Positions 3,331 through 46,846 of a stretch of DNA of 49,436 bases are shown in pieces; the stretch's first letter is position 1; every line of letters begins with the position of its first letter. Origin of the DNA: an uncultured Calditrichaceae bacterium. Lineage in GTDB: Bacteria > Calditrichota > Calditrichia > RBG-13-44-9. The position numbers were made by a program, and so were the translations under genes. Below the pieces are notes generated by a model that was not told the origin of the DNA, did not search any database, and worked only from the letters and a program-made list of their open reading frames with translations. The stretch is taken from NCBI GenBank assembly GCA_964627635.1, contig CAZVKP010000001.1, forward strand, positions 1-49,436. Direction: 5' to 3'.

Positions 3331-3340
3331 AAATATTTAT

Positions 3341-4324: not shown

Positions 4325-4385
4325 TAACAATATCTCTTTCCCAATTAGAGTTAATTAACGAGCAAAATATCAGAGGTTTGACATA

Positions 4386-5828: not shown

Positions 5829-5910
5829 CATTTTAGGTTGACGTAATGAGTCCTTTTTCAGACAGTGAATAACGAAATTTTACAATAGAACATATCCGTA
5901 AGGAATTTAA

Positions 5911-12885: not shown

Positions 12886-15800
12886 ATGAAAAATATCTGT
12901 TTGAAGGCTGCTTTTGTTGCGGTTCTTTTTGTTGTTCAAACCTCATACTCTATTCCATCTGGTTCAGATTCTGTCAATGTGCTGGCGGTCCGTGTTCAGT
13001 TTGCGAAGCAGGACACCAGTACTACAACCGGGGATGGTACGTTTGATTTATCTGATTCCGAAAATCAATTTAAAATTGATCCTCCTCCCCATAATCGAAG
13101 TTATTTCCAGGATCATCTAAAATTTCTGGAAAACTATTATTTCAAAGTGTCACACGGTCAACTTCACGTAACCGGAGATGTGTTTCCACTCGGGGAAAAT
13201 GCAGCCTATCAATTGGACGAACCAATGACAAACTACAATCCCAACACCACACCGGATGCGATAAATAATGGCTTGGCTCGCTTGCTGAGGGATGCGATTC
13301 AAAAAGCCGACCAGGATCCGATCTGATCCCGCTATAGATTTTAGCCGGTATCAGAGTTTTATTGTTTTTCATGCCGGTGTGGGAAAAGATGTGGATTTGG
13401 GATTTGATGAAACACCACAGGATGTTCCATCGCTTTTTATCACCTCGAATTTTTTACAAACAAATTTAGGAATTTCCTCGATTTCAGTCGATAATGGTGC
13501 CGTGCAGGTTTCTAATGGAATGCTTTTGCCGGAAACCGAAAGCCAGGTGGGCATCGGATTGGGGTTGAATGGTATTCTGGTTGCCAATTTTGCATCTCAA
13601 CTCGGTTTACTGGATCTGTTTAGTCCTGAGACACAGCGTTCCGGCATCGGACGGTTTGGCTTGATGGATGCCGGTCTGTTCAATGGAGATGGTTTGTTGC
13701 CTGCGCTCCCCTCTGCCTGGACCCGCATAGACGCAGGGTGGGAGACACCATTAGATATTTATTATTCCCCTGGAGACGAACTTACGGTTCATTCAACACT
13801 GTCATCTCATCCCCAAAGAATTTACCGGATACCAATCAATAAAAAAGAATATTTTTTAGTCGAGAATCGATATGCCGGGAGATTAAATCTGGATAGTTTA
13901 AGATTTGAAATGTCCCAAGGCCTGGATACTCTGGTTTCGGTAAAGGAGGTTTTAATAACCCATTTTCCCGATCAGGTATCTTTTAGTGAACGCGGTGTAT
14001 TAGTCGATGTGAAAAATCCTGATATTGGCTTACCTGGCAGCGGTTGTCTCATCTGGCATATTGATGAAAATGTAATAGATGCCAATCGGGCAGCAAACCG
14101 GATTAATGCCGATCCCGATCACCGCGGGGTAGATTTGGAGGAAGCGGATGGTTCACAGGACATCGGGCAGGAGTTTGATTTTTTAAGCGCCGGCGCCGGT
14201 TCGGAAACCGGCTGGATTCTGGATATGTGGTATCAGGGAAATTCCGCACCTTTGTTTAAACAGGATGATAATGAGTTTTCGGTTAATACGGTGCCAAACA
14301 GCAGAAGTTATAATAACCGGGCGAACAGCCACGTGACGATCTCTAATTTTTCACGTCCGGATTCTGTGATGACGTTTCGGGTAAACCTAAATATTTTCCA
14401 ACAAAATTTTCCCCCATCTGTCGACCCGGTGGTTTATGGGAAAGTAACCGCAATTAAAACCACAGATTTGGATTTTAACGGTTTTCATGATCTGATTCTT
14501 ACCACGACGACGGGTAAAGTATTAGCTGTTGGTTCTGAAGGAAACAATTCCTGGGCAACAGATTCATTAGAAGTGTTAGATCTGGATGATGATTTAATAC
14601 CACCACCGGCTTTATTTACTATTCCATCTCAACAAAGTGAGCCTCAAAAGGGAATGGTTGCGCTCACTCAATCCGGAAAGGTTTATGGTTTTGTTTTTAC
14701 GCAACAAAAAACAGTGGATACCCTGTTTAAACCGTACCAGCTAAATTCACCAAATACTACACATCCACTTGCTTTTATAGATTCTCAGAGTGGTAGTAAA
14801 ATTATTTGGGGAAACCAAAACGGAAACGTTTATCAACTTACTATCGATGAAAATACAGTCTCTTTGGATTCGCTGTTCAATGTAGGCGAAGGGATCCGAT
14901 TTGTGCACCGTGATGGAGAAAATAATATTATTGTTACATCTTCAAACGGCAAAATATTTCAAAATCACGATATTATTAAGCAAGATGTATCGGCTGATTT
15001 TGGACCGGTTGGGGATGAATCCGTTATTTATGACAGAAATAATCAATTATACGCATTAACTCTTTCTGACGAGCTCTTCCAGCAGCAATTTGATTATCAG
15101 TTAAAATCACCGCTAATTGCGATTCCATTTGTGGACAATATTAAAAGCCCCTGGTACTTTGCCGGCGGACAAAACCGATTGTTTTCTTTTCGCTACAATT
15201 TTGCGCTAACGGAAAACTATCCGGTTAAAATTTTTCAACCGGATCGTAAAGCAAATCTAATTTTATCTCCCTTATTCGGGAAATTTTTCAGGGGTGATAA
15301 CAGTGAAGACTTTGGCGTATTAATCAGCGATCCGGCTGGCAGTATAAATGGATATGATTTAAGGGGAGAGCTTTTTGTGGATTTTCCGCTGGTGACAGGA
15401 GACTCATTAAAAGTGAGTCCGGTATTGTTGGATATTGACGGTGATGCCGATGCGGAAGTAGCGGCAGTTACCAATGGTGGGCAACTTTATGTGTGGGATT
15501 TGAATTCCACCTTTGAAGAAAACGGGTGGAATCAGCTTTTTGCCGATGAAATGAACACCAATCGTATCGTTTCCACAGCCGGAATTGACTTGCCGGTTGA
15601 TTCAAAAATATCTTCAAACCAATTATTACCTGAGGAAAAGGTATATAATTGGCCAAATCCCAATACCGAAAATCATACGTTTATTCGATACTATTTGACG
15701 GATAATGCAACGGTTTCGTTAAAAATTTTTGATATTGCAGGCGATTTGGTGCGGGAACTTGAGGCACCCGGCAACCCCCAGACATTTAATGAAGTCCGCT

Positions 15801-15904
15801 GGAATTTAAGTAATATCCAAAGTGGTGTGTATTTAGCCCGCGTGGAAGCCAAAAGTTCATCTGCCAGTGAGGTGAGGATCATAAAAATTGCAGTTGTAAA
15901 ATAA
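12886..15904 (+). pseudogene. Frameshift-interrupted gene (or sequencing error) for a ~1000-aa secreted M6-peptidase-like protein with FG-GAP/VCBS-like repeats and a T9SS C-terminal sorting domain
   Basis: ORF 12886-13326 (signal peptide MKNICLKAAFVAVLFVVQTSYS) and ORF 13292-15904 read as one protein if 1 nt is skipped near 13321. The tail from about 15659 to 15901 (NWPNPNTENHTFIRYYL...SLKIFDIAGDLV...SGVYLARVEA) is a typical type A T9SS CTD. Confidence 0.6.
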
Positions 15905-29084: not shown

Positions 29085-29122
29085 GTTAGTTGATAAATAT
29101 TTTAATACTTAAGGAGGTCGAT

Positions 29123-31147
29123 ATGCCCCCTGATGTTCCGACCAGAGAAATTTATTGGAATATTAATGGCATCATCTGGATGTATGTGCTTTTGCTGTTT
29201 ACGGTAATTATATTCGCCTGGAAATTTTACCGTCGTTACAAATTATGGAAACTGGGGCAACCTGAAAACAGATTAGATAATATTCCTGAAAGACTGCGGC
29301 TGGTGTGGCGCTATGCCTTAGGACAGGGAAGAGTGGTAAAACAGAAATATCCCGGAATTATGCATTTGTTGTTGTATAGCGGCTTTGTTATTCTGTTTAT
29401 TGGCACGGTTCTCATTTTTATCCAGGTGGATTTTACCGAACCGTTGTTTTCCATAAAATTTCTGCACTCAACCTTTTACCTTTTTTATTCAGTGACTTTG
29501 GATGTTTTCGGAATACTGGCGATTGTGGGCATTATTCTGGCAGCCTATCGCCGGATATTTATTAAACCGGTTAATTTAAAACAGCGCAGGGACGATGTAA
29601 TCATACTAACCTCTTTTTTAATTATTTTAATTACCGGCTTTATTATAGAAGGACTTAGGATTGGCGTTTTAAAACCGGAATGGGGTTTATGGTCGCCAGC
29701 CGGATATGGCTTAGCCAAGGTGTTTTCGGGATTGGGTTTTACTCAATTGGGTATGAAAACAGCTCATGCATGGACCTGGTGGTTTCACCTGGTAATTTCT
29801 CTGGCGTTTGTGGCATATATTCCCTACTCAAAATTATTTCACATTTTTACAACTCCACTCAACATCTTCTTTCAGTCACTGGAGCCCAAAGGTGCTTTGA
29901 ACAAAATGGAATTAGAGGAATTGGAAAATTTCGGTTCATCACGAATTGATCATTTTTCCTGGAAAGAATTGATGGATTTGGATGCCTGCACCGAGTGTGG
30001 GCGTTGCTCTGATGTTTGTCCCGCAACCGTTACTCAAAAGGCATTATCCCCCATGAAAGTGATCCTGGATTTGAGAGATCATCTCAGTCAAGTGGGTCCT
30101 TCCATGCTTAAAGCTGATAATCCCGAAAATGTAGAAAGTCCCATCCAAATGGTTGGAGAAGCGGTTCTGGATGAAGAACTCTGGGGATGCACAACCTGTC
30201 GGGCTTGCCAAGAAGCCTGTCCGGTATATATTGAACATATCCCCACAATCCTGGAAATGCGTCGTCATCTCGTTCTGGAAGAGAGCCGTTTTCCGAGTGA
30301 AGTAACCAATACGTTCAAAAATATGGAAACCAATGGAAACCCCTGGGGCATTTCCGCGGAAGATCGGGAAAAATGGGCGACGGGATTGGAGGTACCGAAA
30401 ATGCGGGAAGTGAATGGGGAGGTTGAATATCTGTTTTGGGTGGGATGTGCAGGTGCGTATGACGCTCGAAGCCAAAAAGTGGCACAGGCAATGGTTAAAA
30501 TATTAAATGAAGCTGGCGTAGATTATGCGATTTTGGGCCAGGAAGAAACCTGCAATGGCGATCCCGCAAGGCGAATTGGTAATGAATACTTGTTTCAGAT
30601 TTTAGCCGAACAAAATGTGGAGACTCTCAGTCAATATCAATTTAAGAAAATTCTGACGTTTTGCCCGCACTGTTTCAATACCCTGGCAAATGAGTACGGA
30701 CAGTTTGGTGGCAATTATCAAGTAGTGCACCACACCGACCTGTTGGATGAACTGATAAAGTCCGGAAAAATCAAATTGCAAAAAGATTTGAAACAGACTA
30801 TTACATATCATGATTCCTGTTATCTGGGAAGGCATAATGATATTTATGATTCACCCCGGAATATCCTGCAAGCGATTCCCGGTGTTAATTTAAAGGAGAT
30901 GGCTCGGTCACGGGAAAATGGGTTCTGTTGTGGTGCGGGTGGAGGTCGCATGTGGATGGAGGAGGAGCATCCCAAAGTAAACCATAACCGTGTTGATGAA
31001 GCCGCCGGTTTAAATCCGGATACTATTGGTACCGCCTGCCCATTTTGTGCCACCATGATCGGTGATGGTATCAACGAAACGAGACGTGAAGAACAAATTG
31101 AAGGTAAAGATGTCGCACTGCTGGTGGCAGAAGCAATGGAAATTTAG
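29123..31147 (+). CDS. Membrane-bound Fe-S oxidoreductase: NarI/DsrM-like multi-TM N-domain fused to an HdrD/DsrK-like domain with 2x[4Fe-4S] and CCG motifs
   Basis: CTECGRCSDVCP and CTTCRACQEACP ferredoxin motifs and CCG-type motifs (CPHCFNTL, CCGAGGG) are present, with about 5-6 N-terminal TM helices. AAGGAGG lies 6 nt upstream of the ATG at 29123. Confidence 0.75.
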   Translation: MPPDVPTREIYWNINGIIWMYVLLLFTVIIFAWKFYRRYKLWKLGQPENRLDNIPERLRLVWRYALGQGRVVKQKYPGIMHLLLYSGFVILFIGTVLIFIQVDFTEPLFSIKFLHSTFYLFYSVTLDVFGILAIVGIILAAYRRIFIKPVNLKQRRDDVIILTSFLIILITGFIIEGLRIGVLKPEWGLWSPAGYGLAKVFSGLGFTQLGMKTAHAWTWWFHLVISLAFVAYIPYSKLFHIFTTPLNIFFQSLEPKGALNKMELEELENFGSSRIDHFSWKELMDLDACTECGRCSDVCPATVTQKALSPMKVILDLRDHLSQVGPSMLKADNPENVESPIQMVGEAVLDEELWGCTTCRACQEACPVYIEHIPTILEMRRHLVLEESRFPSEVTNTFKNMETNGNPWGISAEDREKWATGLEVPKMREVNGEVEYLFWVGCAGAYDARSQKVAQAMVKILNEAGVDYAILGQEETCNGDPARRIGNEYLFQILAEQNVETLSQYQFKKILTFCPHCFNTLANEYGQFGGNYQVVHHTDLLDELIKSGKIKLQKDLKQTITYHDSCYLGRHNDIYDSPRNILQAIPGVNLKEMARSRENGFCCGAGGGRMWMEEEHPKVNHNRVDEAAGLNPDTIGTACPFCATMIGDGINETRREEQIEGKDVALLVAEAMEI

Positions 31148-31253
31148 TAATTATTGCTAATGGTTTGAAATAGATGAGGTTCTGAAATTTTCATAAAAAA
31201 TTGTTTGTCTTTAAATCTATTGGGAATTATATTTAAAAAAAATAAAAAACACT

Positions 31254-31319
31254 ATGACTACTGAGAGCAAAAAATATTTTAGCATTTATTATTTTTGGTA
31301 TTATTATGGAGCTATATAA
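31254..31319 (+). CDS. Putative 21-codon leader peptide MTTESKKYFSIYYFWYYYGAI of the aromatic amino acid operon attenuator
   Basis: Codons 8-18 contain 6 Tyr, 2 Phe and 1 Trp. The stop at 31317-31319 lies 6 nt upstream of the alternative-pairing segment. Confidence 0.7.
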   Translation: MTTESKKYFSIYYFWYYYGAI

Positions 31320-31395
31320 AACCGCCTCTCAGTAGATTGTCACAAAAAAACGTGAACTTCAAAACCCCTCTCAATCTACCGAGAGGGGTTTTTTT
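31258..31395 (+). promoter_or_regulatory. Ribosome-mediated transcription attenuator with alternative 1:2, 2:3 and 3:4 hairpins
   Basis: Segment 1 is ctactgagag (31258-31267) and segment 2 is ctctcagtagattg (31326-31339). Segment 3 is caatctaccgagag (31372-31385). Pairing 1:2 is 10/10, 2:3 is 13/14, and 3 overlaps the terminator loop and 3' arm. Confidence 0.7.
31365..31395 (+). terminator. Rho-independent terminator (attenuator 3:4 hairpin)
   Basis: The stem cccctctc/gagagggg has an 8-nt loop and is followed by T7 (31389-31395), 35 nt upstream of the aroF start. Confidence 0.8.
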
Positions 31396-31429
31396 ATATG
31401 TAGGTGGTATTAACTTAAGGAGGTGCATT

Positions 31430-32461
31430 ATGGTAGTGGTTATGAAACTCCATGCTTCCAGGGATGAAATAAATAATGTGGAGCAATTTATCAATAAACA
31501 TGGTGCCCGGGCTCATATTTCAGTGGGCGAGCAGCGAACAATTATTGGTGTAATTGGTTACCGACATCAGGTTCGTAGAGAGCATGTTCAGAGACTGCCT
31601 GGGGTGGATAATGTGATCCCGATTTCCAAACCGTATAAATTGGTGAGCCGGGAATTTAAACGGGATGATACAGTTATTCCATTGAATGGCGTTCAAATCG
31701 GTGGGCCTAAGCCGGTAGTGATTGCCGGTCCCTGCTCGGTAGAAAGTGAGGACCAGATATTAGAGACGGCATCAATTGTTAAAAAGAATGGCGGTCATCT
31801 ATTGAGGGGAGGTGCGTTTAAACCTCGCACCAGTCCTTACAGTTTTCAGGGTTTAGGTGAAGAAGGCTTGCGCTATTTACAAAAGGCAAAAGAAGAAACC
31901 GGACTTTATATTGTTACCGAAGTTTTGGAGGCGATGCACGTTCCGTTGGTTGCAAAATATGCAGATGTTCTTCAAGTTGGTGCCCGAAATATGCAAAATT
32001 ATGAATTGCTTAAAGAAGTGGGACGTCAACAAAAACCTGTGCTACTGAAACGTGGAATGTCTGCAACGTTAACAGAGTTTTTGATGAGCGCTGAATATAT
32101 TATGTCCGAGGGTAACAGCCAGGTAATTTTATGTGAACGTGGGATTCGAACATTTGTTGAATACACCCGGAATACTTTAGATTTGAATGTAGTACCCACT
32201 ATCAAGCAAATTTCACATTTGCCGATAATGGTAGATCCAAGTCATGGGACCGGAAAACGTAATTTAATTGAACCGTTGAGTCTCGGAGCACTGGCAGTGG
32301 GAGCAGATGGTTTGATTGTGGAAGTTCATCCCCGTCCGGAAGAAGCCTGGTCCGATGCCGAACAAACACTGAATCCATCAGAATTTCATCATTTGATGGA
32401 AAAAATTAATTATTTTACCCGGTGTCATAGAAATGTCGAAACTGTCGAAAAAGCCGTATGA
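31430..32461 (+). CDS. aroF: 3-deoxy-7-phosphoheptulonate (DAHP) synthase, type I-beta, with an N-terminal ferredoxin-like/ACT-like regulatory domain
   Basis: GPCSVES...GGAFKPRTSPYSFQGLGEEGL...VDPSHG motifs are present. AAGGAGG lies at 31417-31423. The longer ORF from 31295 would read through the terminator and is rejected. Confidence 0.9.
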   Translation: MVVVMKLHASRDEINNVEQFINKHGARAHISVGEQRTIIGVIGYRHQVRREHVQRLPGVDNVIPISKPYKLVSREFKRDDTVIPLNGVQIGGPKPVVIAGPCSVESEDQILETASIVKKNGGHLLRGGAFKPRTSPYSFQGLGEEGLRYLQKAKEETGLYIVTEVLEAMHVPLVAKYADVLQVGARNMQNYELLKEVGRQQKPVLLKRGMSATLTEFLMSAEYIMSEGNSQVILCERGIRTFVEYTRNTLDLNVVPTIKQISHLPIMVDPSHGTGKRNLIEPLSLGALAVGADGLIVEVHPRPEEAWSDAEQTLNPSEFHHLMEKINYFTRCHRNVETVEKAV

Positions 32462-33768
32462 TTGAATCAGAATTTGATACAAATAAGGAAATGGAATTCA
32501 CCAACCTTCCGCACATAGAAATCAAAACCGGTGTATTGAGTGGAAAAACCAATGCACCTCCTTCCAAAAGTATTACCCACCGGTTGCTGATTATTGCGGC
32601 ACTTTCCGGACAGAGATGGCACATTAAAAATCCACTTTTCAGCGATGATACCCGAATTACGCTGGATGCTTTAAATCAGATGGGATTTTCCATGAATAGT
32701 ATCCCAAATGAATTTGTTTTGGATGGAACTCATAAAAATATTGAATCGCCGTCGGTGATATTTTTTGGTAATTCCGGAACCAGTGCTCGCCTCCTCACTG
32801 CGGTAGCCGCATCGATTTCCGGTGAGTTTCATTTGGACGGAACAGAGCGGATGCGTCAGCGTCCCATGTTTCCATTAATAAATGCATTGCAGCAATTGGG
32901 TGCGGAAATTGAGCATCAAAATGGATATTTGCCAATGGACGTTTCGGGAGGGAACTTAAAGGGTGGTGAAGTCATCATCGATGCCTCCCAGTCATCCCAA
33001 TTTATTTCAGCATTACTTTTAATTGCCCCTTATTTAAAACAAGATTTAACCATACTTCCCGAAGGAACAATCGCATCCAGCGGTTACGTGGATTTAACCT
33101 TTTCTTTAATGAGAAAAAATGGGATCGAAGTTAAAAAAGACGGGGAAAAGATTGTACTACCCGGAAATCAAAATTATGTGATGCGTGACGACAAGGTAGA
33201 AGGCGACTACTCCAGTGCATCGTATTTTTTGGCTGGTGCTGCGTTAACCGGAGGATCGGTGACTGTTAGTAATCTTGAGCAAAGCTCTCACCAGTCTGAT
33301 CAAATAATATTGGAAATTTTGAGTGAAGCAGGAGCGAGAGTTGTGAGGGAATCGGACAAAGTTATTGTGAAAGGCGGCAAAATCAAGGGAATTGATATGG
33401 ATATGCAAAGTTGTCCGGATATCGTCCCCACCGTGGCAGTAATGGCATTATTTGCCACAGGAGATACAAGAATGAGAAATGTAAGGCATCTTCAATTCAA
33501 AGAATCCGATCGCCTCAAGGCGATTCAGGAAAATATATCCAGATTGGGAGGAGAGTCTGAAATTGAAGGAAATGATCTGATCATAAAGCCTCGTCCGCTT
33601 AAAGGCGCTACTCTGCCAACTTATGATGATCACAGAATTGCCATGAGTTTTGCCCTGGCTGGATTACGGGTAAAAGGGGTGAGTATTGAGAATCCAAAAT
33701 GTGTTGAAAAATCTTTTCCTGAATTTTGGCGAGAATTTTATCAAATGATTCAAATTAAAGAGAATTGA
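32458..33768 (+). CDS. aroA: 3-phosphoshikimate 1-carboxyvinyltransferase (EPSP synthase)
   Basis: PPSKSITHRLLIIAAL and GNSGTSARLL motifs are present. There is a 4-nt ATGA overlap with aroF. Confidence 0.9.
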   Translation: MIESEFDTNKEMEFTNLPHIEIKTGVLSGKTNAPPSKSITHRLLIIAALSGQRWHIKNPLFSDDTRITLDALNQMGFSMNSIPNEFVLDGTHKNIESPSVIFFGNSGTSARLLTAVAASISGEFHLDGTERMRQRPMFPLINALQQLGAEIEHQNGYLPMDVSGGNLKGGEVIIDASQSSQFISALLLIAPYLKQDLTILPEGTIASSGYVDLTFSLMRKNGIEVKKDGEKIVLPGNQNYVMRDDKVEGDYSSASYFLAGAALTGGSVTVSNLEQSSHQSDQIILEILSEAGARVVRESDKVIVKGGKIKGIDMDMQSCPDIVPTVAVMALFATGDTRMRNVRHLQFKESDRLKAIQENISRLGGESEIEGNDLIIKPRPLKGATLPTYDDHRIAMSFALAGLRVKGVSIENPKCVEKSFPEFWREFYQMIQIKEN

Positions 33769-33801
33769 TTAAACTTATGAATACAATATATCGGAGTTTT
33801 A

Positions 33802-35145
33802 ATGAGTGGTAATTTGTTTGGAAAAGCATTTCAAGTCATGACATTTGGAGAGAGCCACGGGCCATACATTGGTCTGGTAATTGATGGTGTTAAACCGGGA
33901 ATACCCATTGAGGTGGAGGATATCCAGAAAGAGTTGGATCGACGTCGTCCGGGGCAAAGCGATATTGTAACCCCTCGCAAGGAAACCGATCAGGTGGAAA
34001 TTATCAGTGGTATTTTTGAAGGGAAGACGACCGGAACCCCACTGACAATGTTAATTAGAAATCAAGACCAACGCTCCAAAGATTATCAAAAATTGAAGAA
34101 CATTTTACGACCCGGACATGCCAGTTACACATTCTTAAAAAAATACGGTGTTTTCGATTATCGCGGCGGGGGAAGAGCCAGCGGACGTGAGACTGCTACG
34201 CGGGTAGCAGCCGGCGCTGTTGCGAAACAATTCTTGAGTCAAAGGGGCATCCAAATTATTGCTTATACCAAACAGATATCTGATATTCAAATTGAATCTA
34301 TTGATTATAAACAGATCGAACAAAATGCGGTGAGAGCCCCGGACGAGAGTGCTGCTGAAAGAATGATACAAGCGATTAATCGGGCAAAAGAAGAGGGTGA
34401 TTCGCTGGGCGGCGTAATCGAGATTGTGGTAAAGAACTCACCTGTTGGTTTAGGCGAGCCTGTATTTCATAAGCTGGAAGCAGATTTAGCACAGGGATTG
34501 ATGTCCATTGGAGCGGTGAAAGCTTTTGAGATGGGAAGCGGTTTCGATGCAGCGAATATGAAGGGCAGTGAACACAACGATTCTTGCTATTTTGATAAAA
34601 CTGAAAACCGGATCAGAACCCGAACCAACAATTCAGGAGGTGTAGTAGGTGGAATTACCAATGGAGAAAATTTGATTATGCGAGTTGCTGTTAAACCACC
34701 TTCATCAATTAATAAATCACAGGAAACTGTCGATCTTTCCGGAAATCCGGTGACATTCGAAGTGGGCGGCCGTCACGATCCGTGCATTTGTCCACGTGTT
34801 GTTCCCGTAGCTGAAGCAATGGCTGCACTGGTCTTGATCGATCACATTTTATTGCAGGAAAGAATATCAGAAAATGACAGCCTGCAAAATTTACGTGAAA
34901 AAATTGATACAATTGATGTGCAATTATTACTCTTGCTAAGCAAGCGTCGCCACTTAATTGGGGAAATTGCAGAAATCAAGAAATCAAAAAATATTGAGAT
35001 TGATGATCCTGAGAGAGAGCAAGAAGTGAGGGAGAAGTGGCATAAGTTAGCCACCGAACTGGAGATTCCTTCCGATGTCGTCGAACGTCTCATTAATATA
35101 GTTTTTGATCACTCCAAAAATACACAAAAGGACTTGTTAAAATGA
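33802..35145 (+). CDS. aroC: Chorismate synthase fused to a C-terminal AroQ-type chorismate mutase domain
   Basis: FGESHG and GGGRASGRETATRV identify chorismate synthase. The last ~88 aa (nt about 34879-35142), LREKIDTIDVQLLLLLSKRRHLIGEIAEIKK...DPEREQEV, look like a CM_2 helix bundle. Confidence 0.85.
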   Translation: MSGNLFGKAFQVMTFGESHGPYIGLVIDGVKPGIPIEVEDIQKELDRRRPGQSDIVTPRKETDQVEIISGIFEGKTTGTPLTMLIRNQDQRSKDYQKLKNILRPGHASYTFLKKYGVFDYRGGGRASGRETATRVAAGAVAKQFLSQRGIQIIAYTKQISDIQIESIDYKQIEQNAVRAPDESAAERMIQAINRAKEEGDSLGGVIEIVVKNSPVGLGEPVFHKLEADLAQGLMSIGAVKAFEMGSGFDAANMKGSEHNDSCYFDKTENRIRTRTNNSGGVVGGITNGENLIMRVAVKPPSSINKSQETVDLSGNPVTFEVGGRHDPCICPRVVPVAEAMAALVLIDHILLQERISENDSLQNLREKIDTIDVQLLLLLSKRRHLIGEIAEIKKSKNIEIDDPEREQEVREKWHKLATELEIPSDVVERLINIVFDHSKNTQKDLLK

Positions 35146-35885
35146 AATCTATGGGATTGATCGGATTTGGCAGGTTTGGTCAGGTTCTTTTCAGGCAATT
35201 GAACCAATTAATCGATATCCACATTTACGATCCTTATGTTAATGTTCATCCAAATGACAACATTCCATTAACCTCTCTGGAGTCTGTTTGCCGGAATCCT
35301 TTGGTTGTCGTAGCGGTTCCGGTTTCAGCTATCCGAAGTATCTCAGAACAGATGACTAATTATCTTATGGACAATGTTGTAGTTATGGATGTTTGTGGGG
35401 TGAAAGAATATCCGCTTAAAATAATGACGCAATTTTTCCCCGAAAGAGTCCAAATTTTAGGAAGTCATCCGTTGTTTGGCCCGGATTCGGTAATTTCGGA
35501 TCTCACTGATCATTTAATGATCCTGACTCCCCAGCGAATTTCTGATGCAAGATTAAAGGAAATAAAAACATTTTGGAAGCAATTTGGTCTTAAGTTAATT
35601 GAGATGAGCGCGGAAGAACAGGATCGTTTGATGGCATGGACGCTGGCATTAACTCACTTTTTGGGACGTGGATTAAATGGATTACCTTTACCGGATACCG
35701 GAATTGCTACCAGGGATTATCAAAATTTACTGCGACTAATGGAAAAAATAAACCGGGACACCTGGGAGCTTTTCGAAGACATGCACCGGTATAATCCTTA
35801 TACTTCCGAGATGCGGGAAAGACTTTTACAATCCATGACAGAATTAAAAAATAAGTTGGACAAATTAAAACCCGTTGAATTCTAA
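35142..35885 (+). CDS. tyrA: Prephenate (or arogenate) dehydrogenase
   Basis: MGLIGFGRFGQ (GxGxxG) and SHPLFGP motifs are present. There is an ATGA overlap with aroC. Confidence 0.75.
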   Translation: MKSMGLIGFGRFGQVLFRQLNQLIDIHIYDPYVNVHPNDNIPLTSLESVCRNPLVVVAVPVSAIRSISEQMTNYLMDNVVVMDVCGVKEYPLKIMTQFFPERVQILGSHPLFGPDSVISDLTDHLMILTPQRISDARLKEIKTFWKQFGLKLIEMSAEEQDRLMAWTLALTHFLGRGLNGLPLPDTGIATRDYQNLLRLMEKINRDTWELFEDMHRYNPYTSEMRERLLQSMTELKNKLDKLKPVEF

Positions 35886-38732: not shown

Positions 38733-41700
38733 ATGAATTTAAAGTCAGGTACTGTAGTTGTGAGTCCATTCTGGCCCGAACCTGTGGAAATAAAACTTAT
38801 TGAAGAATCAGGTGATTACGTACATATTGTTGGTGTCACGACTAAATCCAATCAGCATGTTGATCAGATTATTTCAAAAAAAGAATTAGCAAATTTCGAA
38901 GTATTGGGGACAGAAATTAGATGTGATGAAGAACCCTGGAAAGTATTCCTGGGTTTAGAAACTATTCGCTATCGGTTTGCAACCCTTTATGATCCACTAC
39001 TCGCGATGAATACATCAAAAGTAGATCCTTTACCCCACCAAATTGAGGCGGTTTACGGTTATGTTTTGAAGTTGCCAAGAATCCGATTTCTGATTGCGGA
39101 TGACCCTGGCGCAGGTAAAACGATTATGGCTGGATTAATCATAAAGGAATTAAAACTGCGAAATCTGGCCAAGAAAATCCTGATAGTCGTCCCGGGACAT
39201 TTGAAAGACCAGTGGCGTCGGGAACTGTCAGAACGCTTCGAAGAAAAATTTATGGTTATGGATCGAGGCTTACTGGATGCACTTTACGGAGAAAATGCCT
39301 GGTTGCGGGAGAAGCAAATTATTACGTCAATAGATTTTGCCAAACAAGAAGATGTGTTACCTTCAATTGCCAGTGCAAGGTATGATTTAATCATAGTGGA
39401 TGAAGCTCATAAAATGAGTGCTTATAAATATGGTGATAAAATTAGCAAGACCAGTCGTTATAAACTTGGTGAGGCACTTTCACGGAATACCGAACACTTG
39501 CTTTTTCTGACTGCTACTCCCCATAAGGGAGATCCGGAAAATTTTAGGTTGTTTTTGGATTTGCTTGAACGGGGATTTTTTTCAACTAATGAGCTGTTAA
39601 ATGATTCGGTTAAAAATAAAGATAATCCTTTATTTATTCGCCGGATTAAGGAAGATCTCAAGGATTTTGAAGGAAAACCCATTTTTCTTCCCCGCTATGT
39701 GAGAACCAAGGCATTTCGATGGAAAACGGATTCTCCTAATGAACAGATTCTCTACAATGAACTCTCTAAATACGTTCAGAATCAATACAATAAAGCATTA
39801 ACTAAAACTAAAAGGCGAAATGTTGCATTTGCGTTGGTTATTCTACAAAGACGATTGGCTTCCAGCACTTATGCATTGTGGAAATCTCTGGAACGGCGCA
39901 AAAAACGCCTGGAAGAAATGCTGGAAACAGTAGATAAACCCGGAAAATTGATGGAAAAAGAATTTGATTTTGATACGGTGGAGGATATGAGCGAAGAAGA
40001 ACGATGGAAGGAAGAAGAAATTTGGGAGACATTGAGTGTTGCGGAAAATCGGGAAGAATTAGAAAAGGAGATACAAACCCTTATTGGTTTAATTACAAAG
40101 GCAAAGAAAATAATTCAGAATGAAGAAGAATTGAAATTGCTGGAATTTAAAAATGCGTTGCAGGAATTAGTACAAAACTATGCCGAACGAAAAGACAAAA
40201 AGGTATTGGTTTTTACCGAATCTAAGGAGACGCTGGAATATCTGGAAAAGAAAATTCGAAGCTGGGGGTATTCAACAAATACCATTCACGGCGGGATGAA
40301 ATTAGATGAACGAATTAAAGCTGAAACTATTTTTAAAAATGAAACCGATGTATTGGTTGCAACCGAGGCTGCAGGTGAAGGTATAAATCTCCAATTTTGC
40401 CATTTAATGATAAATTACGACATTCCCTGGAATCCGAACCGATTGGAACAACGAATGGGACGAATACATCGCTATGGGCAGCAAAAAGAGGTTCACATTT
40501 TTAATTTAGTGGCAATTGACAGTCGTGAAGGCCAAGTATTGTACCGTTTATTTGAAAAAATTGATGAAATTAGAGATGCCATGGGCAGCGATAAAGTATT
40601 TGATGTTCTGAGCGAAGTATTGTATGATAAAAATCTATCTCAGCTATTGATGGAAGCCGCTGCCAGTTCCAGAGATATCAATGAAATTGTTAATGAGGTG
40701 GATATTACTGTAGATGATGAATATATCGCTCAAATAAAGGAAAACTTAGGTGAAAGTCTGGCAACCAGATTTATTGACTATACCAGAATTAAAGAAATGG
40801 CTCAACAGGCTAAAGAATACCGGTTGATTCCGGAGTATACCGAAAGTTATTTTAAAAAAGCATTTGCCAAAGTTGGAGGTCGATTCCGAAAATTATCAGG
40901 AAGCGAACAGTCACCGTGGAAAGAAGGACTTATCTCTGTAGATTCAATCCCATATGATATTCGTAAAATTGCCGATGAAGATACTTTTATAAAGACACAT
41001 GGCGAATTATTAAAGCGCTATATGCGATGCACCTTTGACAAGGAAATCGCTTTTAAGAATCCCGATATGGAATTTGTTACCTTTGGTCATCCGTTATTTG
41101 AAGCGGTAATGGATTGGGTCGATGCTAATTTTAATGACTCATTATTAAATGGCGCAACCTTTATCGACCCGGACGGAAAACTCAATGGATATATTCTGTT
41201 TTTTGAGGGAGAGATTAAAGATGGCATGGGAGATGTAGCCGGAAAGCGGCTTTTCAGCTTTTTGATTAGTGACAATGACATTACAACTGTTTCTCCGGCT
41301 ATTATTTGGGATTTATCGGAAAATGACTCCGAAGAAATAATACCAAATGAAGTGTCTGGGATCGATATAGATGCCCTTAAGAAAAAAGGATTTAATGCCA
41401 TTATCCCGCAACTTGAATCCTATAAATCTGAATTATTTCAAGAACGCCAACGGCAAGCTCACATCCATCATAAATACGGCGTGAAATCATTAGATGACCT
41501 TGTGGTCAATTTGGATGCTGAATTAATTAAACTCTATGAACGTAAAGAAATGGGAGAAAATGTCGATCTGGCGATTCGTAATAAGCAGGAACGAATGAGT
41601 GAATACCAACGGGCGCTCCAAGAGTTGAAAGAACTCATTGAAATGGAACAGAGTTTGACTATGAGCGCGCCAAAATTTAGAGGAATCCTTCGGGTAATAC

Positions 41701-42110
41701 CTGCTAAGAAGAAAAGCATAGCAATGGTCAGTGATGAAATGATTGAACGCATCGGTATGGAGGTTGCCATAAATTATGAAGAAGAAAATAAACGAACGGC
41801 GGAAGACGTGTCATCCGAAAATTTGGGTTTTGATATTCGTTCCGTGGATATAAACAAAAATATTCGCTACATCGAGGTGAAAGCCCGGGCGGGAATGGAT
41901 GCAATTGCATTGACCCAGAATGAATGGTTTAAAGCCAGGCGATTTAAAAATGATTATTATTTATATGCTGTGCTCAATGTAGCAGAGAGTCCACAACTCT
42001 ATATTATTCCGAATCCGGCTGAAAATCTTAAACCGGATGAAAAGATAGAAATGGTGCGTTATATTATTGATGTAAGACAGATAGTACAAATAGGTGCTGA
42101 AAATGATTAA
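38733..42110 (+). CDS. SNF2-family helicase (1125 aa) with a C-terminal DUF3883-like PD-(D/E)xK nuclease-fold domain
   Basis: Motif I is ADDPGAGKT, motif II is IIVDEAHK and motif III is LTATPHKG. The helicase-C region reads VLVATEAAGEGINLQFCHLMINYDIPWNPNRLEQRMGRIHRYGQ. The C-terminal GFDIRSVD...IRYIEVKAR...LTQNEWFKA...YYLYAV is the DUF3883-like part. Confidence 0.85.
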   Translation: MNLKSGTVVVSPFWPEPVEIKLIEESGDYVHIVGVTTKSNQHVDQIISKKELANFEVLGTEIRCDEEPWKVFLGLETIRYRFATLYDPLLAMNTSKVDPLPHQIEAVYGYVLKLPRIRFLIADDPGAGKTIMAGLIIKELKLRNLAKKILIVVPGHLKDQWRRELSERFEEKFMVMDRGLLDALYGENAWLREKQIITSIDFAKQEDVLPSIASARYDLIIVDEAHKMSAYKYGDKISKTSRYKLGEALSRNTEHLLFLTATPHKGDPENFRLFLDLLERGFFSTNELLNDSVKNKDNPLFIRRIKEDLKDFEGKPIFLPRYVRTKAFRWKTDSPNEQILYNELSKYVQNQYNKALTKTKRRNVAFALVILQRRLASSTYALWKSLERRKKRLEEMLETVDKPGKLMEKEFDFDTVEDMSEEERWKEEEIWETLSVAENREELEKEIQTLIGLITKAKKIIQNEEELKLLEFKNALQELVQNYAERKDKKVLVFTESKETLEYLEKKIRSWGYSTNTIHGGMKLDERIKAETIFKNETDVLVATEAAGEGINLQFCHLMINYDIPWNPNRLEQRMGRIHRYGQQKEVHIFNLVAIDSREGQVLYRLFEKIDEIRDAMGSDKVFDVLSEVLYDKNLSQLLMEAAASSRDINEIVNEVDITVDDEYIAQIKENLGESLATRFIDYTRIKEMAQQAKEYRLIPEYTESYFKKAFAKVGGRFRKLSGSEQSPWKEGLISVDSIPYDIRKIADEDTFIKTHGELLKRYMRCTFDKEIAFKNPDMEFVTFGHPLFEAVMDWVDANFNDSLLNGATFIDPDGKLNGYILFFEGEIKDGMGDVAGKRLFSFLISDNDITTVSPAIIWDLSENDSEEIIPNEVSGIDIDALKKKGFNAIIPQLESYKSELFQERQRQAHIHHKYGVKSLDDLVVNLDAELIKLYERKEMGENVDLAIRNKQERMSEYQRALQELKELIEMEQSLTMSAPKFRGILRVIPAKKKSIAMVSDEMIERIGMEVAINYEEENKRTAEDVSSENLGFDIRSVDINKNIRYIEVKARAGMDAIALTQNEWFKARRFKNDYYLYAVLNVAESPQLYIIPNPAENLKPDEKIEMVRYIIDVRQIVQIGAEND

Positions 42111-43353
42111 AAATGTTGAAATTTTACATTACAAAGGATTTAAATATAATCACATTGATCTGACGAATTACAATATTTTAGTTGGACCAAATGCCAGTGG
42201 TAAGAGTTCCTTATTGGATGTTTTTACCTTTTTAAAAGATGTGTTGAATGAAGAACCTGTATATGCTATACAAAAAAGAAGCTCGCGTTTTGAAGAATTG
42301 GTTTGGAATCAACAAAGAGATTACTTTGAAATTGCTGTAGAATTTAAAATACCGCCAGAAAAAAATACACGTTACCAATTTGCTAGATATGAAATAGCTC
42401 TCACTCAAAATGAATTAGATGGAATTATTATAGAAAATGAGCAACTCTGGTTGTTAAGAGATTACAATAAAAGAAACCTCAAGCGAAAGTTGAATAAACA
42501 ACTTACACTTTTCCCGCGTGAACCGGAAGCTCCCATCCATGTTATTACTCAATCAAAAAAAAATCCGGTTGGTTGGCGTAAAATTGTTTCGAAAAGTAAT
42601 AAAGGAAATGATTATTTTCGATCAGAAAACACCGAATGGAATATAACATATCGATTTGGACCTCAAAAAGCCTCGTTGGCACGCATTCCAGAAGATGTTA
42701 ATAGATTTTCAATTTCGTTGTGGATTAAGTCAGTTCTTATGGAAGGTATAGAATTTATCCAGCTAAACAGTGCCGATATGCATAAAGCCTGCAGGCCAGA
42801 TTCTCCAGTATATTTTGAAGCAACCGGAAGCAATCTGCCCAAAGTGATTAAGTATCTAAAGGATAACCATTCTGATGCTTTTAAACGATGGGTGGATCAT
42901 GTAGGAACCGCCTTACCTGATGTATTGAATATTCAGGTTAAGGAAAGGCCTGAAGATCGATTCCTGTATTTGTCAATTAAATATCAAAGTGGGGTCGAAA
43001 TTCCTTCCTGGTTGTTGTCAGATGGCACCTTAAGATTATTGGCTCAAACATTAATTGCTTATTTGCCTGAAAAAGATAAATTATATATGATTGAAGAACC
43101 TGAAAATGGATTACATCCTCAAGCAATCGAAACAGTTATACAATCATTATCTTCTGTGTATAAAAACCAAGTAATTTTGGCAACTCATTCACCAGTGGTG
43201 TTACGATTATCTGAGCCAGATGATATACTCTGTTTTTCCAAAACCGAATCAGGGGCATTTGACATCATCCGAGGAGATAAGCATCCCAAATTAAAAGGCT
43301 GGAAAAAAGATGTGGATATGGCAACTCTTCATGCTGCCGGGGTTTTACAATAA
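42103..43353 (+). CDS. AAA/ABC-type ATPase (AAA_21/AAA_15-like, SMC/OLD-type fold without a nuclease domain)
   Basis: Walker A is GPNASGKSS, Walker B/D-loop is LYMIEEPENGLHP and the H-loop is ILATHSP. The ATG at 42103 overlaps the helicase stop (42108-42110). Confidence 0.8.
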   Translation: MIKNVEILHYKGFKYNHIDLTNYNILVGPNASGKSSLLDVFTFLKDVLNEEPVYAIQKRSSRFEELVWNQQRDYFEIAVEFKIPPEKNTRYQFARYEIALTQNELDGIIIENEQLWLLRDYNKRNLKRKLNKQLTLFPREPEAPIHVITQSKKNPVGWRKIVSKSNKGNDYFRSENTEWNITYRFGPQKASLARIPEDVNRFSISLWIKSVLMEGIEFIQLNSADMHKACRPDSPVYFEATGSNLPKVIKYLKDNHSDAFKRWVDHVGTALPDVLNIQVKERPEDRFLYLSIKYQSGVEIPSWLLSDGTLRLLAQTLIAYLPEKDKLYMIEEPENGLHPQAIETVIQSLSSVYKNQVILATHSPVVLRLSEPDDILCFSKTESGAFDIIRGDKHPKLKGWKKDVDMATLHAAGVLQ

Positions 43354-43973
43354 TGAAAGATTTAGTCATTTTGGTGCCTGATAAAAATACACAATTTGTC
43401 TTAAATGGACTTTTACCCCGTCATCAAGCACTTCAAATACGTCCTCTGGAATATGATATTTTTATTCATCCACAACGGGATCCAGGTGTTTATCGTTATG
43501 CTTCAACGTTTTTCCGGCAATTTTTCCGGCAATATGATTACGCTCTTGTGTTTATTGACAGGGAGGGATGTGGACAAGAAGATAAGACTGCTAGTGAAAT
43601 TAGAGAAAATATTCAATCAGATTTGAATAGAAATGGATGGCAAGATCGTTGTGATGTTGTTGTTTTCGATCCGGAATTGGAAATATGGGCTTGGGTGGAC
43701 TCTCCCCATTTGGCTCATTTTCTTGGGTGGGAAAATTTAACGACATTACATGAGTTTATAAAGCAAGAGGGGTTTTGGATAGAAAATGACCCGAAACCAA
43801 ATCGCCCAAAGGAATCAATTGAAACTGCTCTACGAGAAAAAGAAATACAACGGTCTTCTGCGATCTACAGAAACATTGCTTCAAATGCCAGTTTCAGTGA
43901 TTGTGAGGATTCTTCTTTCTTACATTTTAAAAGTGTTTTAACTCAATGGTTTCCAGAAAGGAGAAGAAGGTGA
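43353..43973 (+). CDS. 206-aa partner of the ATPase, family uncertain (DUF4276-like/Toprim-like by loose motif resemblance)
   Basis: The ATG shares a base with the ATPase [32 protein letters not shown] and [15 protein letters not shown] are loosely reminiscent of DUF4276. No profile search was possible. Confidence 0.35.
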
Positions 43974-46846
43974 AAGATAAAGATAAACGTCTCATAGAAG
44001 AATCGTTCCCGGTTAAGGAAGTGAGCAAAGAGTCCGCGAGAGAAAAGAACATCCGTCACGGGCATATTTCCACTTTACACATCTGGTGGGCGAGGCGACC
44101 GTTGGCAGCTTCCAGAGCCACTGCCTATGCGGCTCTGACGCCAGCTCCCAAAACACCGGATGAGTGGAATGCAAAACGAAATTTTATAACAGAACTTTGT
44201 AAATGGGAAAATTCCAATAACCAGCAATTACTCGAAAAAGCGCGGAAGGACATTCTGGAAGCCAACGGCGGCGTTCCACCCAAAGTGCTTGATTCCTTTG
44301 CAGGTGGGGGATCGATTCCCCTGGAGGCGCTGCGACTGGGATGCGAGACCTATTCCAATGATTATAATCCGGTGGCGGTGCTCATACAAAAATGCACGTT
44401 AGAGTATCCCCAGAAATATGGGAAACCAATACCAAAGGCTCAGTATCTGGCGGAACGGCCATGGCTGAAAAGCAGCAAAGAGCAGAGCGCAGAGCGAAAA
44501 GCGTTGTTTTATGATAATGTAATGAACGGCAGCAACGAAATGTTAAACCCGCTGCTGGAGGATGTGAAATACTGGGGGAACTGGGTGCTGCAGGAAGCCA
44601 AAAAAGAGATCGGCAGGTTTTATCTAAAAGATCCAGACGGTTCTGTTCCGGTAGGTTATATCTGGGCGCGGACCATTCCCTGCCAGAATCCGACTTGTGG
44701 AGCAGAGATTCCCTTGATGCGGCAGTTCTGGTTGGCGAAGAAACCGAAGAAAAAAGTAGCGCTGTTTCCGACATCCCCCCCAGCCCCCCTTCCCACGGAA
44801 GTGGTGGCTTACGCCAATAGGGGGGAAGGTGATAGTCCCCTTTCGAAGGGGGATTTAGGGGGATGTCCACAGGTACAGTTCAAGATTATTGGGGACGGTT
44901 ACGAACCGATGCCGGAAGATTTTGACCCGTCCAACGGCACGGTATCCCGGGCGGTTGCTACCTGTCCGGTATGCGGCAGTACCATAGAAGCCAAAACCAC
45001 CCGCAAACTGTTCCAGCAGGGAAAAAGCGGCGAGCGTATGGTAGCGGTGGTGACCCATAAGCCCGGCACGACCGGCAAAAAATACCGCCTTGCCACCGAC
45101 CAGGATATGGAAATTTTCCGGGAAGCAGAAAAATATCTGCAGGAAAAACGGGAAGGGCTGATGCAGGAATGGGGGATGGACCCGGTGCCAGATGAACCCT
45201 TACCACCTAAAGAAAGTCATCGTGCTGTTGGTAGTCAGTTACCACTTTATAATTTTAAAGTATGGGGGGATTTATTTAACATCAGACAAAAAATAGTTCT
45301 ATTAACATTTATTGAAAAGGTGCTATATGCACAGCGAAGGTTGTTAGAATTTAAACTGGATTTAGGATATGTTAAGTCGTTGAGCAGTTATTTAGGTTTA
45401 ACTTTTGATATGACGGCTGCTTTTGGAAACGTGCTTGCTAGATGGGAGAACACTTCGGAGGCGATTAAACAATTATTTTCAAGACAAGCACTACCAATGC
45501 TCTGGGATTATATAGAAGTAAATCCACTAAGTACATCTTCTGGGAGTTTTAACGCTGGCTCTGATTATTATTATAAGGTAATTGAGCACTGCTCAAAAGT
45601 AAGTAAAAATTCCTCTTCAATTTCACAATTTTCTTCTACTTCATTAAATTTTAAGAATAATTATTTTGATACAGTAATTACAGATCCCCCTTATTATGAC
45701 AACGTTCCCTACTCTTATCTTTCTGATTTCTTTTATGTTATTTTAAAGCGCACTGTTGGCCAAGTAAATTCAGAAATGTTTTCTACACCACTTACGCCTA
45801 AAAGCAATGAAATTGTGGTTTATGGAAATACGCCTGGAGGAAAAGGAAAAGCCACAAAATTTTTTGAGGATATGCTCAAAAAATCTTTTCAAGAAATTAA
45901 TCGTGTGCTTAAGCCAAATGGTACAGCAATAATAGTTTATGCCCATAAATCTACGGCCGGTTGGGAAACATTGATTAATTCTATGTTAGATTCTGGACTG
46001 ATAATCACAAGTGCATGGCCTGTTAATACAGAGATGAAATCTAGGCTTCTGGCGCATGAAACAGCTGCATTAGCATCATCTATGTATATAGTCGCTCGCA
46101 AAAGGAAGCGACAACCCACCGGTTTCTACAATCAGGTAAAAGAAGAACTGAATCAATATCTTTCTCAAAAATTGGACCGTCTCTGGCAGGAGGGCATCAG
46201 TGGGGCAGATTTTTTTATTGCTGCCATCGGATCCGCCATCGAAGTGTTTGGCAAATACGAAAAAGTAATGGATTACGAGGGCAACATCATCCGCGCCAAC
46301 CGTTTGTTAATGGACGTGCGTAAAATTGCCACCGATTATGCAGTGAGACAAATCCTGCACAACGGGTTTGCGGGGGAGATTTCCGACCTCACTCGCTTTT
46401 ACGTGCTGTACCGCTGGGAATTCGGTGCCGCCAAAGCGCCCTTCGACGAAGCCCGTAAACTGGCGGCAAGCTGCGGCATCGATCTGTCCCAATTTTGGCA
46501 TAAGCACAAGTTCATCAAAAAAGCTAAAGAATTCGTGAAAGTGTTGGGACCGCAGGAGCGTAATCCGGAAGAATTAAAAAATTCCATCGAACTGATTGAT
46601 GTATTGCAAAAAGCGTTGTTACTGTGGGAAAAGAGCAAACGGGAAGAGATGATGCAAGTTTTGCAGGAATCCGGTTATGCCAATAGCGAAGCGTTTTACC
46701 GGGTAGCGCAGGCCATCTCCGAAACATTACCCAACGAGAGCAAAGAAAAGAAATTGCTGGAAGGCTTTTTGTCCGGGAGAGAACGGATTCAGTCCGAGAG
46801 CAAGAATTATGTAGTCAAAGAGCGGCAGGGGAAGTTTGATTTTTAA
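43970..46846 (+). CDS. DUF1156-type Zn-ribbon DNA methyltransferase (N6-adenine/N4-cytosine class)
   Basis: The N-terminal [38 protein letters not shown] is the DUF1156 signature. The SAM motif DSFAGGGS starts at 44291. The Zn ribbon is CQNPTC...CPVC (44681-44974) and motif IV DPPY lies at 45683-45694. The GTG at 43970 overlaps the upstream TGA (GTGA); the ATG at 43946 is an alternative start. Confidence 0.85.

Follow-up and report, generated by a model that had tools for sequence, protein, structure and literature searches.

Does the short open reading frame (ORF), dense in tyrosine codons, that precedes an aromatic amino acid operon in an uncultured Calditrichaceae bacterium encode the leader peptide of a transcription attenuator, or is it a chance frame in AT-rich DNA beside an ordinary terminator? 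The operon, headed by the gene for DAHP synthase, lies in a stretch of 49,436 nucleotides (nt) (contig CAZVKP010000001.1, assembly GCA_964627635.1, positions 1 to 49,436 of the forward strand), which we refer to as the window and whose numbering is used throughout; the features of the leader and of the operon are all on the + strand. An initial reading of the DNA letters, here called the original prediction, had proposed a classical attenuator with a Tyr/Phe/Trp-rich leader at this place. We have compared the region with related loci, folded it and modelled the positions that a ribosome would take on it. From these comparisons and models we conclude, with a probability of about 0.88, that the element is a ribosome-mediated (leader-peptide) attenuator of the DAHP synthase operon that would sense charged tRNA-Tyr and tRNA-Phe, with tRNA-Trp contributing to a minor extent.

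Results

A leader ORF selected for aromatic codons

The leader ORF (31254-31319) begins with ATG, ends with a TAA stop codon at 31317-31319 and encodes MTTESKKYFSIYYFWYYYGAI in 21 codons. Its codons 8-18 (31275-31307), which we regard as the regulatory run, read TAT TTT AGC ATT TAT TAT TTT TGG TAT TAT TAT, so that 9 of 11 are aromatic (6 Tyr, 2 Phe and 1 Trp). The window has 1002 small ORFs of 10–50 codons over its six frames; the leader ORF alone among them reaches this density, the runner-up having seven aromatic codons in 11.

Loci for comparison came from a genome scan, a metagenome scan and eleven exact-protein look-ups guided by homologue search. The related set consists of 20 Calditrichota-type loci, with 65-81% identity in DAHP synthase and one truncated contig included, and two Ignavibacteria-type loci (63-66%); they are designated by L numbers. 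In reference genomes the closest DAHP synthases belong to Caldithrix and Calditrichia metagenome-assembled genomes (MAGs), at 76-78% identity, all others being at or below 61%. Every related locus that includes the upstream region has a Tyr/Phe-rich mini-ORF followed by a GC-rich hairpin and a T-run. The end of the T-run is 15-35 nt from the DAHP synthase start, except in L164, where the distance is 91 nt. The contig of L004 is cut inside the leader, and what remains are the switch element described below (segment 2) and the terminator.

Positional equivalents of the leader ORF are present in 21 related loci (20 distinct sequences), in each case in the sole open frame. The 21 distinct leaders contain 101 Tyr, 74 Phe and 14 Trp residues, or 189 of ~505, and individual leaders have 7-12 aromatic codons, which amount to 29-50% of their length. 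Synonymous codons are used throughout (TAT 76 and TAC 25; TTT 68 and TTC 6), and the other two forward frames contain stop codons in every one of these leaders. Length (18-31 codons), residue order and termini all vary, as the peptides of L001 (MKSLKNTFYYYGYYYYFGGWCSDSQ), L083 (MISIENKKFYFTFYYYYFEGL), L163 (MKAFERTFFNGIFYFYAYYYYFGGITQTSQ), L164 (MKSAERTFSFYFWYYFWGMPPSASQ), L002 (MKTNVNKIYYFSYYFYQRGYSINLP) and the Ignavibacteria-type L166 (MNINSTFNRSFSFYFYFYFDSYS) illustrate; aromatic composition is all that they have in common. Conservation of composition alone, together with synonymous variation and interrupted alternative frames, indicates that selection acts on translated aromatic codons rather than on a peptide or a nucleotide motif.

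The element is present in single copy and always stands ahead of DAHP synthase, despite varying neighbours. In the relatives, the upstream neighbours are acetate kinase, an Hpt protein, a divergently transcribed prephenate dehydratase or a glycerol-3-phosphate acyltransferase. The downstream gene sets are EPSP synthase with fused chorismate synthase/chorismate mutase and tyrA, the chorismate synthase/chorismate mutase fusion alone, or aroB-aroDE. Because the neighbours vary and the linkage to DAHP synthase is constant, the element is not the terminator of an upstream gene.

Tryptophan codons are unevenly distributed among the leaders. There are 1-4 of them ahead of DAHP synthase-aroB-aroD/E operons, which serve the common pathway only (L164, L165, L169 and L170), and 0-1 ahead of chorismate mutase/tyrA or chorismate synthase/chorismate mutase operons (Mann–Whitney p = 0.0009 between the two sets). 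As the four aroB-aroD/E loci form a single clade, this is weak evidence that the codon mix tracks operon content.

More distant loci (54-61% identity; 149 loci from Geobacter, Anaerolineae, Acidobacteria and others) are different: in 148 of the 149, small upstream ORFs had at most 5 aromatic codons in 11. The sole exception, L053 from a Clostridiaceae MAG, has a separate candidate leader (L053:3703-3909) before a DAHP synthase gene that starts at 4001 and whose protein is only 54% identical. It comprises a TTGACA/TATAAT promoter, a 43-codon ORF (MEHVMNSRQLNEVFGYFFFTGDYYYFSAGTFAWPKLHRRSCPF) and a terminator GGGAGACTCTTAGAGGGTCTCCCTTTTT (3882-3909). It shares no sequence relationship with the Calditrichota element and seems to be independent. 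Recurring Geobacter-type upstream 'peptides' (...GWWCIRWRNWRS) were considered and rejected as leaders, since in L088 and L101 they are the out-of-frame 3' end of the upstream gene. That gene, which looks Crp/Fnr-type by eye, ends in ...TISRTFKKLKEEGIIEVQG...HQMDKLEKLSERHE*, ~200 nt upstream of DAHP synthase.

Three mutually exclusive helices

Segment 1 (CTACTGAGAG, 31258-31267), the proposed anti-antiterminator, spans codons 2-5 of the leader and is the perfect complement of 31326-31335. The latter belongs to segment 2 (CTCTCAGTAGATTG, 31326-31339), the switch element, which can pair either with segment 1 or with segment 3 and is extendable to C31325. Segment 3 (CAATCTACCGAGAG, 31372-31385) runs from the 3'-most base of the terminator 5' arm through the entire loop to the fifth nt of the 3' arm, and its pairing with segment 2, the antiterminator, extends over 13 of 14 positions, with a lone mismatch of A31331 against C31380. 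The intrinsic terminator, or attenuator proper, occupies 31361-31395 and is made up of AAAA, the 5' arm CCCCTCTC (31365-31372), the loop AATCTACC, the 3' arm GAGAGGGG (31381-31388) and T7 (31389-31395). A terminator scan extended the stem to 12 pairs (31361-31392), and the motif occurs once in the window. The leader stop codon starts 9 nt and ends 6 nt before segment 2.

The computed energies of the 1:2 duplex (-16.2 kcal/mol), the 2:3 duplex (-16.5 kcal/mol) and the terminator hairpin (-14.9 kcal/mol) are comparable, as one would expect of a switch. Shuffling the upstream part 500 times never yielded a match for the 1:2 duplex (p<0.002), and this helix is contained in the minimum-free-energy fold. 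For 31240-31400 that fold has -41.6 kcal/mol, against -21.9 +/- 3.5 kcal/mol for 200 dinucleotide shuffles, none of which was as low (z = -5.67). The particulars of the original prediction hold up well here: its coordinates and translation of the ORF, with 9 aromatic codons in 11, its two alternative pairings of segment 2, its placing of segment 3 over the loop and 3' arm of a T7 terminator that ends at 31395, and its 6 nt between stop codon and segment 2 all agree with the sequence, the terminator also with the scan. The folding comparison, which it had named as a check, finds the real region far more stable than its shuffled counterparts.

Conservation and covariation of the alternative pairings

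We aligned 16 leaders of the largest sequence class, class A, with MAFFT (alignment A3) and counted pairs per cell. The terminator (3:4) was paired in 99.2% of cells, compared with 36-73% in slid controls, and has two pairs that changed on both sides. For the antiterminator (2:3) the figures were 92.9%, 29-52% and three pairs, and for the 1:2 helix 77.4%, 35-42% and four pairs. The sequence of segment 2 is highly conserved among the relatives. Column 102, a position in segment 2 that is either A or G, covaries with both of its partners, with segment 1 (U-A 7, C-G 6) and with segment 3 (A-U 9, G-C 7). The consensus structure returned by RNAalifold is the terminator only, with 3 covarying pairs. 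That a terminator loop should be conserved, and should covary with a distant segment, would be hard to explain without an alternative pairing, and we regard this as supportive. Because the sequences are related and the helices very conserved, the pair counts are likewise supportive and not formal proof. An alignment of upstream regions had been another check proposed at the outset; in the related loci it finds the mini-ORF, the terminator and the 2:3 pairing conserved, with compensatory changes.

The same logic recurs with different sequences in three lineages, class A, class B (L002, L082 and L086) and the Ignavibacteria. In class B, AGAGGGGGTATTCAAT, located in the ORF just past the Tyr run, pairs with ATTGAATAC...CCCCTCT, that is, with the pre-terminator region and the 5' arm. 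In the Ignavibacteria, the partner of GCCAGTAGTTA is TAACTACTGGC, composed of the terminator loop and the 3' arm.

A further conserved motif, GGAGG, directly follows the aromatic run (31308-31312, within Gly-Gly codons) and is retained in the class-A relatives (A3 columns 76-80). Its pairing with the 5' half of segment 2 or with the terminator 5' arm was no better than in shuffled or slid controls; it may act as Gly-Gly codons or as an internal Shine–Dalgarno-like pause site.

Promoter and operon

A consensus scan placed a candidate sigma-70-type promoter at 31205-31233, with a -35 hexamer TTGTCT (31205-31210), a 17-nt spacer and a -10 hexamer TATATT (31228-31233). TTG(A/T)TT, ~17 nt and TATATT, 20-28 nt upstream of the leader start codon, are found in most of the 21 related loci, and from these conserved hexamers the promoter is probably sigma-70-like. 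The original prediction had suggested a possible FCB-type promoter, which we do not uphold. Bacteroidetes-type promoters have TTTG at -33 and TAnnTTTG at -7. Over the 22 loci the bases after TATATT vary (CA, GA, CT, AA, TT and others) and TAnnTTTG is not conserved, and we therefore rejected this type. With the predicted transcription start near 31240, the 5' untranslated region would be ~14 nt long, A-rich and devoid of a Shine–Dalgarno sequence.

The leader is followed by a DAHP synthase of type I-beta with an N-terminal ferredoxin-like FXD domain (31430-32461), EPSP synthase (32458-33768), chorismate synthase fused to a type II chorismate mutase (33802-35145) and prephenate dehydrogenase (35142-35885), all assigned by Pfam and matching the aroF-aroA-aroC/CM-tyrA order, with an N-terminal domain on the first enzyme, that had been read at the outset. 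The genes of this operon (31430-35885) follow one another closely or overlap, and a search within it gave no convincing internal terminator. The same gene order occurs in L001, L002 and L005. The operon makes chorismate, prephenate and the Tyr branch, which is a physiological fit with an attenuator that senses aromatic amino acids. The gene upstream of the leader (29090-31147) encodes a CCG/4Fe-4S protein by Pfam and has no relation to aromatic metabolism.

The start of the DAHP synthase gene matters here, because a 388-amino acid (aa) ORF that begins at TTG 31295 would run through the leader. We rejected this ORF as the DAHP synthase gene, in line with the original prediction, since its start is overlong: the FXD profile aligns from residue 1 of the protein that begins at ATG 31430; an AGGAGG (31418-31423) lies 6 nt ahead of that ATG (Shine–Dalgarno sequence plus start codon, 31418-31432); and public collections hold an identical 343-aa protein and near full-length homologues of 340-350 aa. 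The true start is 34 nt past the T-run, and AGGAGG is not sequestered by the terminator. Residues 1-326 of the enzyme align with Thermotoga maritima DAH7PS (1RZM and 3PG9), whose N-terminal domain binds Tyr. The window DAHP synthase therefore probably has a Tyr-binding allosteric domain of its own.

Ribosome position and a proposed mechanism

The spacing between ORF and segments follows rules that fit a translating ribosome, taken to cover ~12-13 nt downstream of its A site. The distance from the last aromatic codon of the run to segment 2 is 19-23 nt in 13 of 16 class-A leaders and 21 nt in the window. The aromatic codons of the window are thus at least 21 nt before segment 2 and beyond the cover of the ribosome, so that segment 2 would be free during a stall. 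The stop codon of class-A leaders starts either 6-11 nt before segment 2 or 7 nt inside it, then as the TAG of CTCA(A/G)TAG; in 10 relatives it is 7-12 nt inside, which would amount to full occlusion.

We then folded eight leaders, representing every architecture, as truncated transcripts with an incomplete 3' arm, a crude stand-in for cotranscriptional kinetics. A ribosome placed on the aromatic codons made the antiterminator the most favourable structure in each of the eight (-12 to -27.5 kcal/mol). Moving it to the stop codon abolished the antiterminator in L164, L001, L002, L086, L166 and L171 and only shortened it in the window (-9.9 kcal/mol) and in L168 (-11.2 kcal/mol). Equilibrium folding of the full leader was dropped as a test of the switch because the terminator dominates in it, and the truncated transcripts were used instead. 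Even at equilibrium, stalls at codons 8-9, which mask segment 1 directly, lower the modelled terminator probability to 0.07-0.16.

From these observations we infer the following sequence of events. Transcription would begin at the sigma-70-like promoter, ~14 nt upstream of the leader ATG, and a ribosome would translate the 21-codon leader while RNA polymerase advances. If Tyr or Phe were scarce, the ribosome would stall on codons 8-18, at least 21 nt upstream of segment 2, leaving the latter free, with segment 1 occupied either by the stalled ribosome itself (codons 8-9) or by a following or initiating one. Free segment 2 would then pair with the emerging terminator loop and zip into the 3' arm, the terminator hairpin would not form, and the polymerase would read into aroF-aroA-aroC/CM-tyrA. 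If the aromatic tRNAs were charged, the ribosome would reach the stop codon, at the edge of segment 2 or, in many relatives, inside it, and block or perturb that segment. On its release, segment 1 would capture segment 2, the GC-rich hairpin with its T7 would form, and transcription would end at ~31395.

Two parts of this mechanism had been anticipated and stand in modified form. The claim that a ribosome completing the leader masks segment 2 fits the geometry, and in many relatives occlusion would be full; in the window itself the footprint is predicted to reach only ~4 nt of the segment. The claim that a stalled ribosome frees segment 2 agrees with the spacing and with the truncated folds; what it had not provided for is that stalls at codons 12-18 leave segment 1 exposed.

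Several observations weigh against a simple attenuator of this kind. The window leader has no Shine–Dalgarno sequence (AAAATAAAAAACACT precedes its ATG), whereas the downstream gene has a strong AGGAGG, and the leaders of the relatives have weak purine-rich motifs at best before the start codon. A ribosome at the window stop codon covers ~4 of the 14 nt of segment 2, and once the ribosome has left, the 1:2 helix probably contributes to termination as well. That helix is present in ~9 of 16 class-A relatives and missing from roughly half; it is significant in the window, L081, L083 and L003 (p<=0.006), is seen by eye in L163, L164, L165, L169 and L170, and, being absent in L085, L001, L005 and L084, was rejected as a universal feature. 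Many relatives combine a stop codon inside segment 2 with no 1:2 helix. Since stalls at codons 12-18 do not mask segment 1, a queued or initiating second ribosome must be assumed for them. When the full transcript is folded at equilibrium with ribosome footprints masked, the terminator forms in almost every state, and the switch must consequently be kinetic. Finally, 8 of the 15 antiterminator pairs are invariant or depart only by mismatches, which limits the covariation, and because the sequences are related the shuffle controls overstate significance.

Alternative explanations

The alternative that survives best is a real terminator/antiterminator switch worked by a factor other than the ribosome, such as a protein that binds RNA in the manner of TRAP, PyrR or LicT, an uncharged tRNA acting as in a T-box, or a riboswitch for a small molecule, with the aromatic ORF as an incidental U/A-rich spacer. 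It would account for the missing Shine–Dalgarno sequence in the window leader, for a conservation of segments 1-3 that goes far beyond the needs of pairing and could mean a bound factor, and for a conserved GGAGG that has no supported pairing partner. However, no riboswitch, T-box or protein-binding leader family reached the Rfam threshold, the only sub-threshold match of this kind being PyrR (18 bits vs 54, E = 8.4), and (G/U)AG repeats do not occur as an array. A spacer of no function, moreover, would not keep one open frame, a start codon, 30-50% aromatic residues and synonymous variation across 21 divergent leaders, nor would it fix the stop codon relative to segment 2 even in lineages whose helix sequences are unrelated. 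We consider this alternative improbable.

Slightly less probable still is that the product is what matters, either as a functional small aromatic/hydrophobic peptide or as a terminated leader RNA of ~150 nt acting in trans, with control of the operon secondary or additional. There is precedent in the rnTrpL/peTrpL leaders of Sinorhizobium, where leader peptides and released attenuator RNAs act in trans (PMC7298713, PMC6614838), and the sequences of segments 1-3 are unusually conserved over a range of 65-81% protein identity. Against it, the peptides differ in length (18-31 aa), at their termini and in residue order, with composition alone conserved, and a function in trans would supplement the attenuator role rather than replace it.

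The third possibility, that the hairpin simply ends transcription of the upstream gene (29090-31147) or is an ordinary intergenic terminator and that ORF and complementarities arose by chance in AT-rich DNA, can draw on a strong stand-alone intrinsic terminator that is the sole RNAalifold consensus structure and on the ease with which low-complexity T/A-rich DNA encodes Tyr, Phe and Ile, but we judge it effectively refuted by the comparative data and very improbable, given a conserved promoter between upstream gene and leader, an upstream gene that differs or sits on the other strand among loci in which DAHP synthase is constant, a terminator loop that is conserved and covaries with segment 2, an aromatic density found in 1 of 1002 small ORFs and a fold z of -5.7.

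Other features of the window

Two further gene clusters and a pair of secretion-related genes were noted. A probable Hma-type anti-phage defence island lies at 38733-46846, where GC content is ~0.36 as against ~0.41 elsewhere in the window. It contains an SNF2 helicase with a NOV_C domain (38733-42110; PADLOC HmaA, 1e-200), an AAA ATPase that is HEC-01A/mad3-like (42094-43353), a small mad4-like protein (43353-43973) and a DUF1156 adenine methylase (43946-46846; HmaB, 4e-125). A bacterial microcompartment (BMC) locus at 1213-6543 encodes an RpiB-DeoC fusion protein (1213-2637), BMC-domain shell proteins (2701-3330 and 5911-6543) and an aldehyde dehydrogenase (4386-5828). PorV, a type IX secretion component (11612-12793), and an 870-aa protein with a Por_Secre_tail sorting domain (13292-15904) are consistent with an organism of the FCB group.

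Discussion

Relation to known attenuators

The ribosome-mediated attenuator that we favour resembles trpL and pheL of E. coli in four respects: codons for the end product of the pathway are clustered in a small ORF, an intrinsic terminator lies ahead of the first structural gene, the pairings 1:2, 2:3 and 3:4 exclude one another, and the stop codon adjoins segment 2. The trp/pheA logic of the original prediction is borne out to this extent, but the segments are placed differently. Segment 1 of the window is upstream of the regulatory codons whereas that of trpL lies over them, and segment 3 is terminator loop and 3' arm whereas in trp/pheA it is the 5' arm. The codons, too, are mostly Tyr with Phe in place of those for a single amino acid, and what is controlled is a DAHP synthase heading an operon for the common pathway and Tyr. 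There is no homology of sequence or model, and the host phylum is Calditrichota. No Rfam family reached threshold in the leader (30900-31800, E up to 10), in the whole window or in 11 related and outgroup loci. Phe_leader (RF01859) came to 22.1 bits where 55 are required, and the 16 Rfam matches up to E = 10 in 30900-31800 did not include T-box; the Trp_leader family is RF00513.

One precedent is the aroR leader peptide of Corynebacterium glutamicum (Phe-Tyr-Phe), which controls aroF and responds to Phe limitation, Tyr reportedly having no effect (Neshat et al., 2014, as summarised in PMC11802643). It too is a ribosome-mediated attenuator with aromatic codons ahead of a DAHP synthase operon. 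It belongs to the Actinobacteria and has 3 aromatic codons, whereas the Calditrichota family has 7-12 and is dominated by Tyr, a comparison that we make by description. The uORFC-13-1 motif before aroF in Acholeplasma, a U run coding for at least one Phe, is known from Mollicutes and unassigned environmental sequences (Brewer et al., 2021; PMC8632094). It resembles the present element as a candidate upstream ORF with promoter, start and Phe codons, followed by an intrinsic terminator and found exclusively before the DAHP synthase gene. We set it apart, again by description, because neither a Tyr run nor a three-segment switch is reported there. In Thermus, Bacteroides and Vibrio, too, DAHP synthase-tyrA operons have been predicted to be preceded by terminator/antiterminator pairs (PMC1173090); those predictions are structural only, with neither a sensing mechanism nor a leader peptide, and concern other phyla.

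A survey of 2010 gave leader peptides as then known from Proteobacteria and Actinobacteria only, and added Firmicutes (PMC2965389). In the literature we found no report linking Caldithrix or Ignavibacteria with leader peptides, and no demonstrated Tyr-responsive leader peptide. We regard the elements of the Calditrichota and Ignavibacteria as a family not described before, whose kind of regulation is classical.

A wider reading joins these features. The elements, of which the present one would be the first example, may form an independently evolved attenuator family of Calditrichota and Ignavibacteriota, both within the FCB group (the Fibrobacteres-Chlorobi-Bacteroidetes superphylum), in which Tyr is the main signal, the terminator loop and 3' arm are what is trapped, the codon mix is tuned to operon content, and the 1:2 helix perhaps closes the leader initiation site. 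In the last respect, a helix over codons 2-5 that shut the initiation site might mean that each transcript is read once only. We offer this combination tentatively, as a possibility that we hold to be rather less probable than its negation.

Implications

Leader-peptide attenuation as such is understood no differently as a result of this work, since the mechanism proposed is the classical one. What changes is its range, which is extended to Calditrichota and Ignavibacteria. For annotation, the mini-ORF should be entered as a leader peptide and the 388-aa ORF that starts at 31295 dropped as incorrect; a covariance model with which to annotate both phyla could be built from the 22 aligned leaders. 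For the biology of these organisms, the locus provides a testable case of a leader dominated by Tyr codons that presides over the committed step of aromatic biosynthesis, alongside a probable Tyr-binding allosteric domain at the level of the enzyme.

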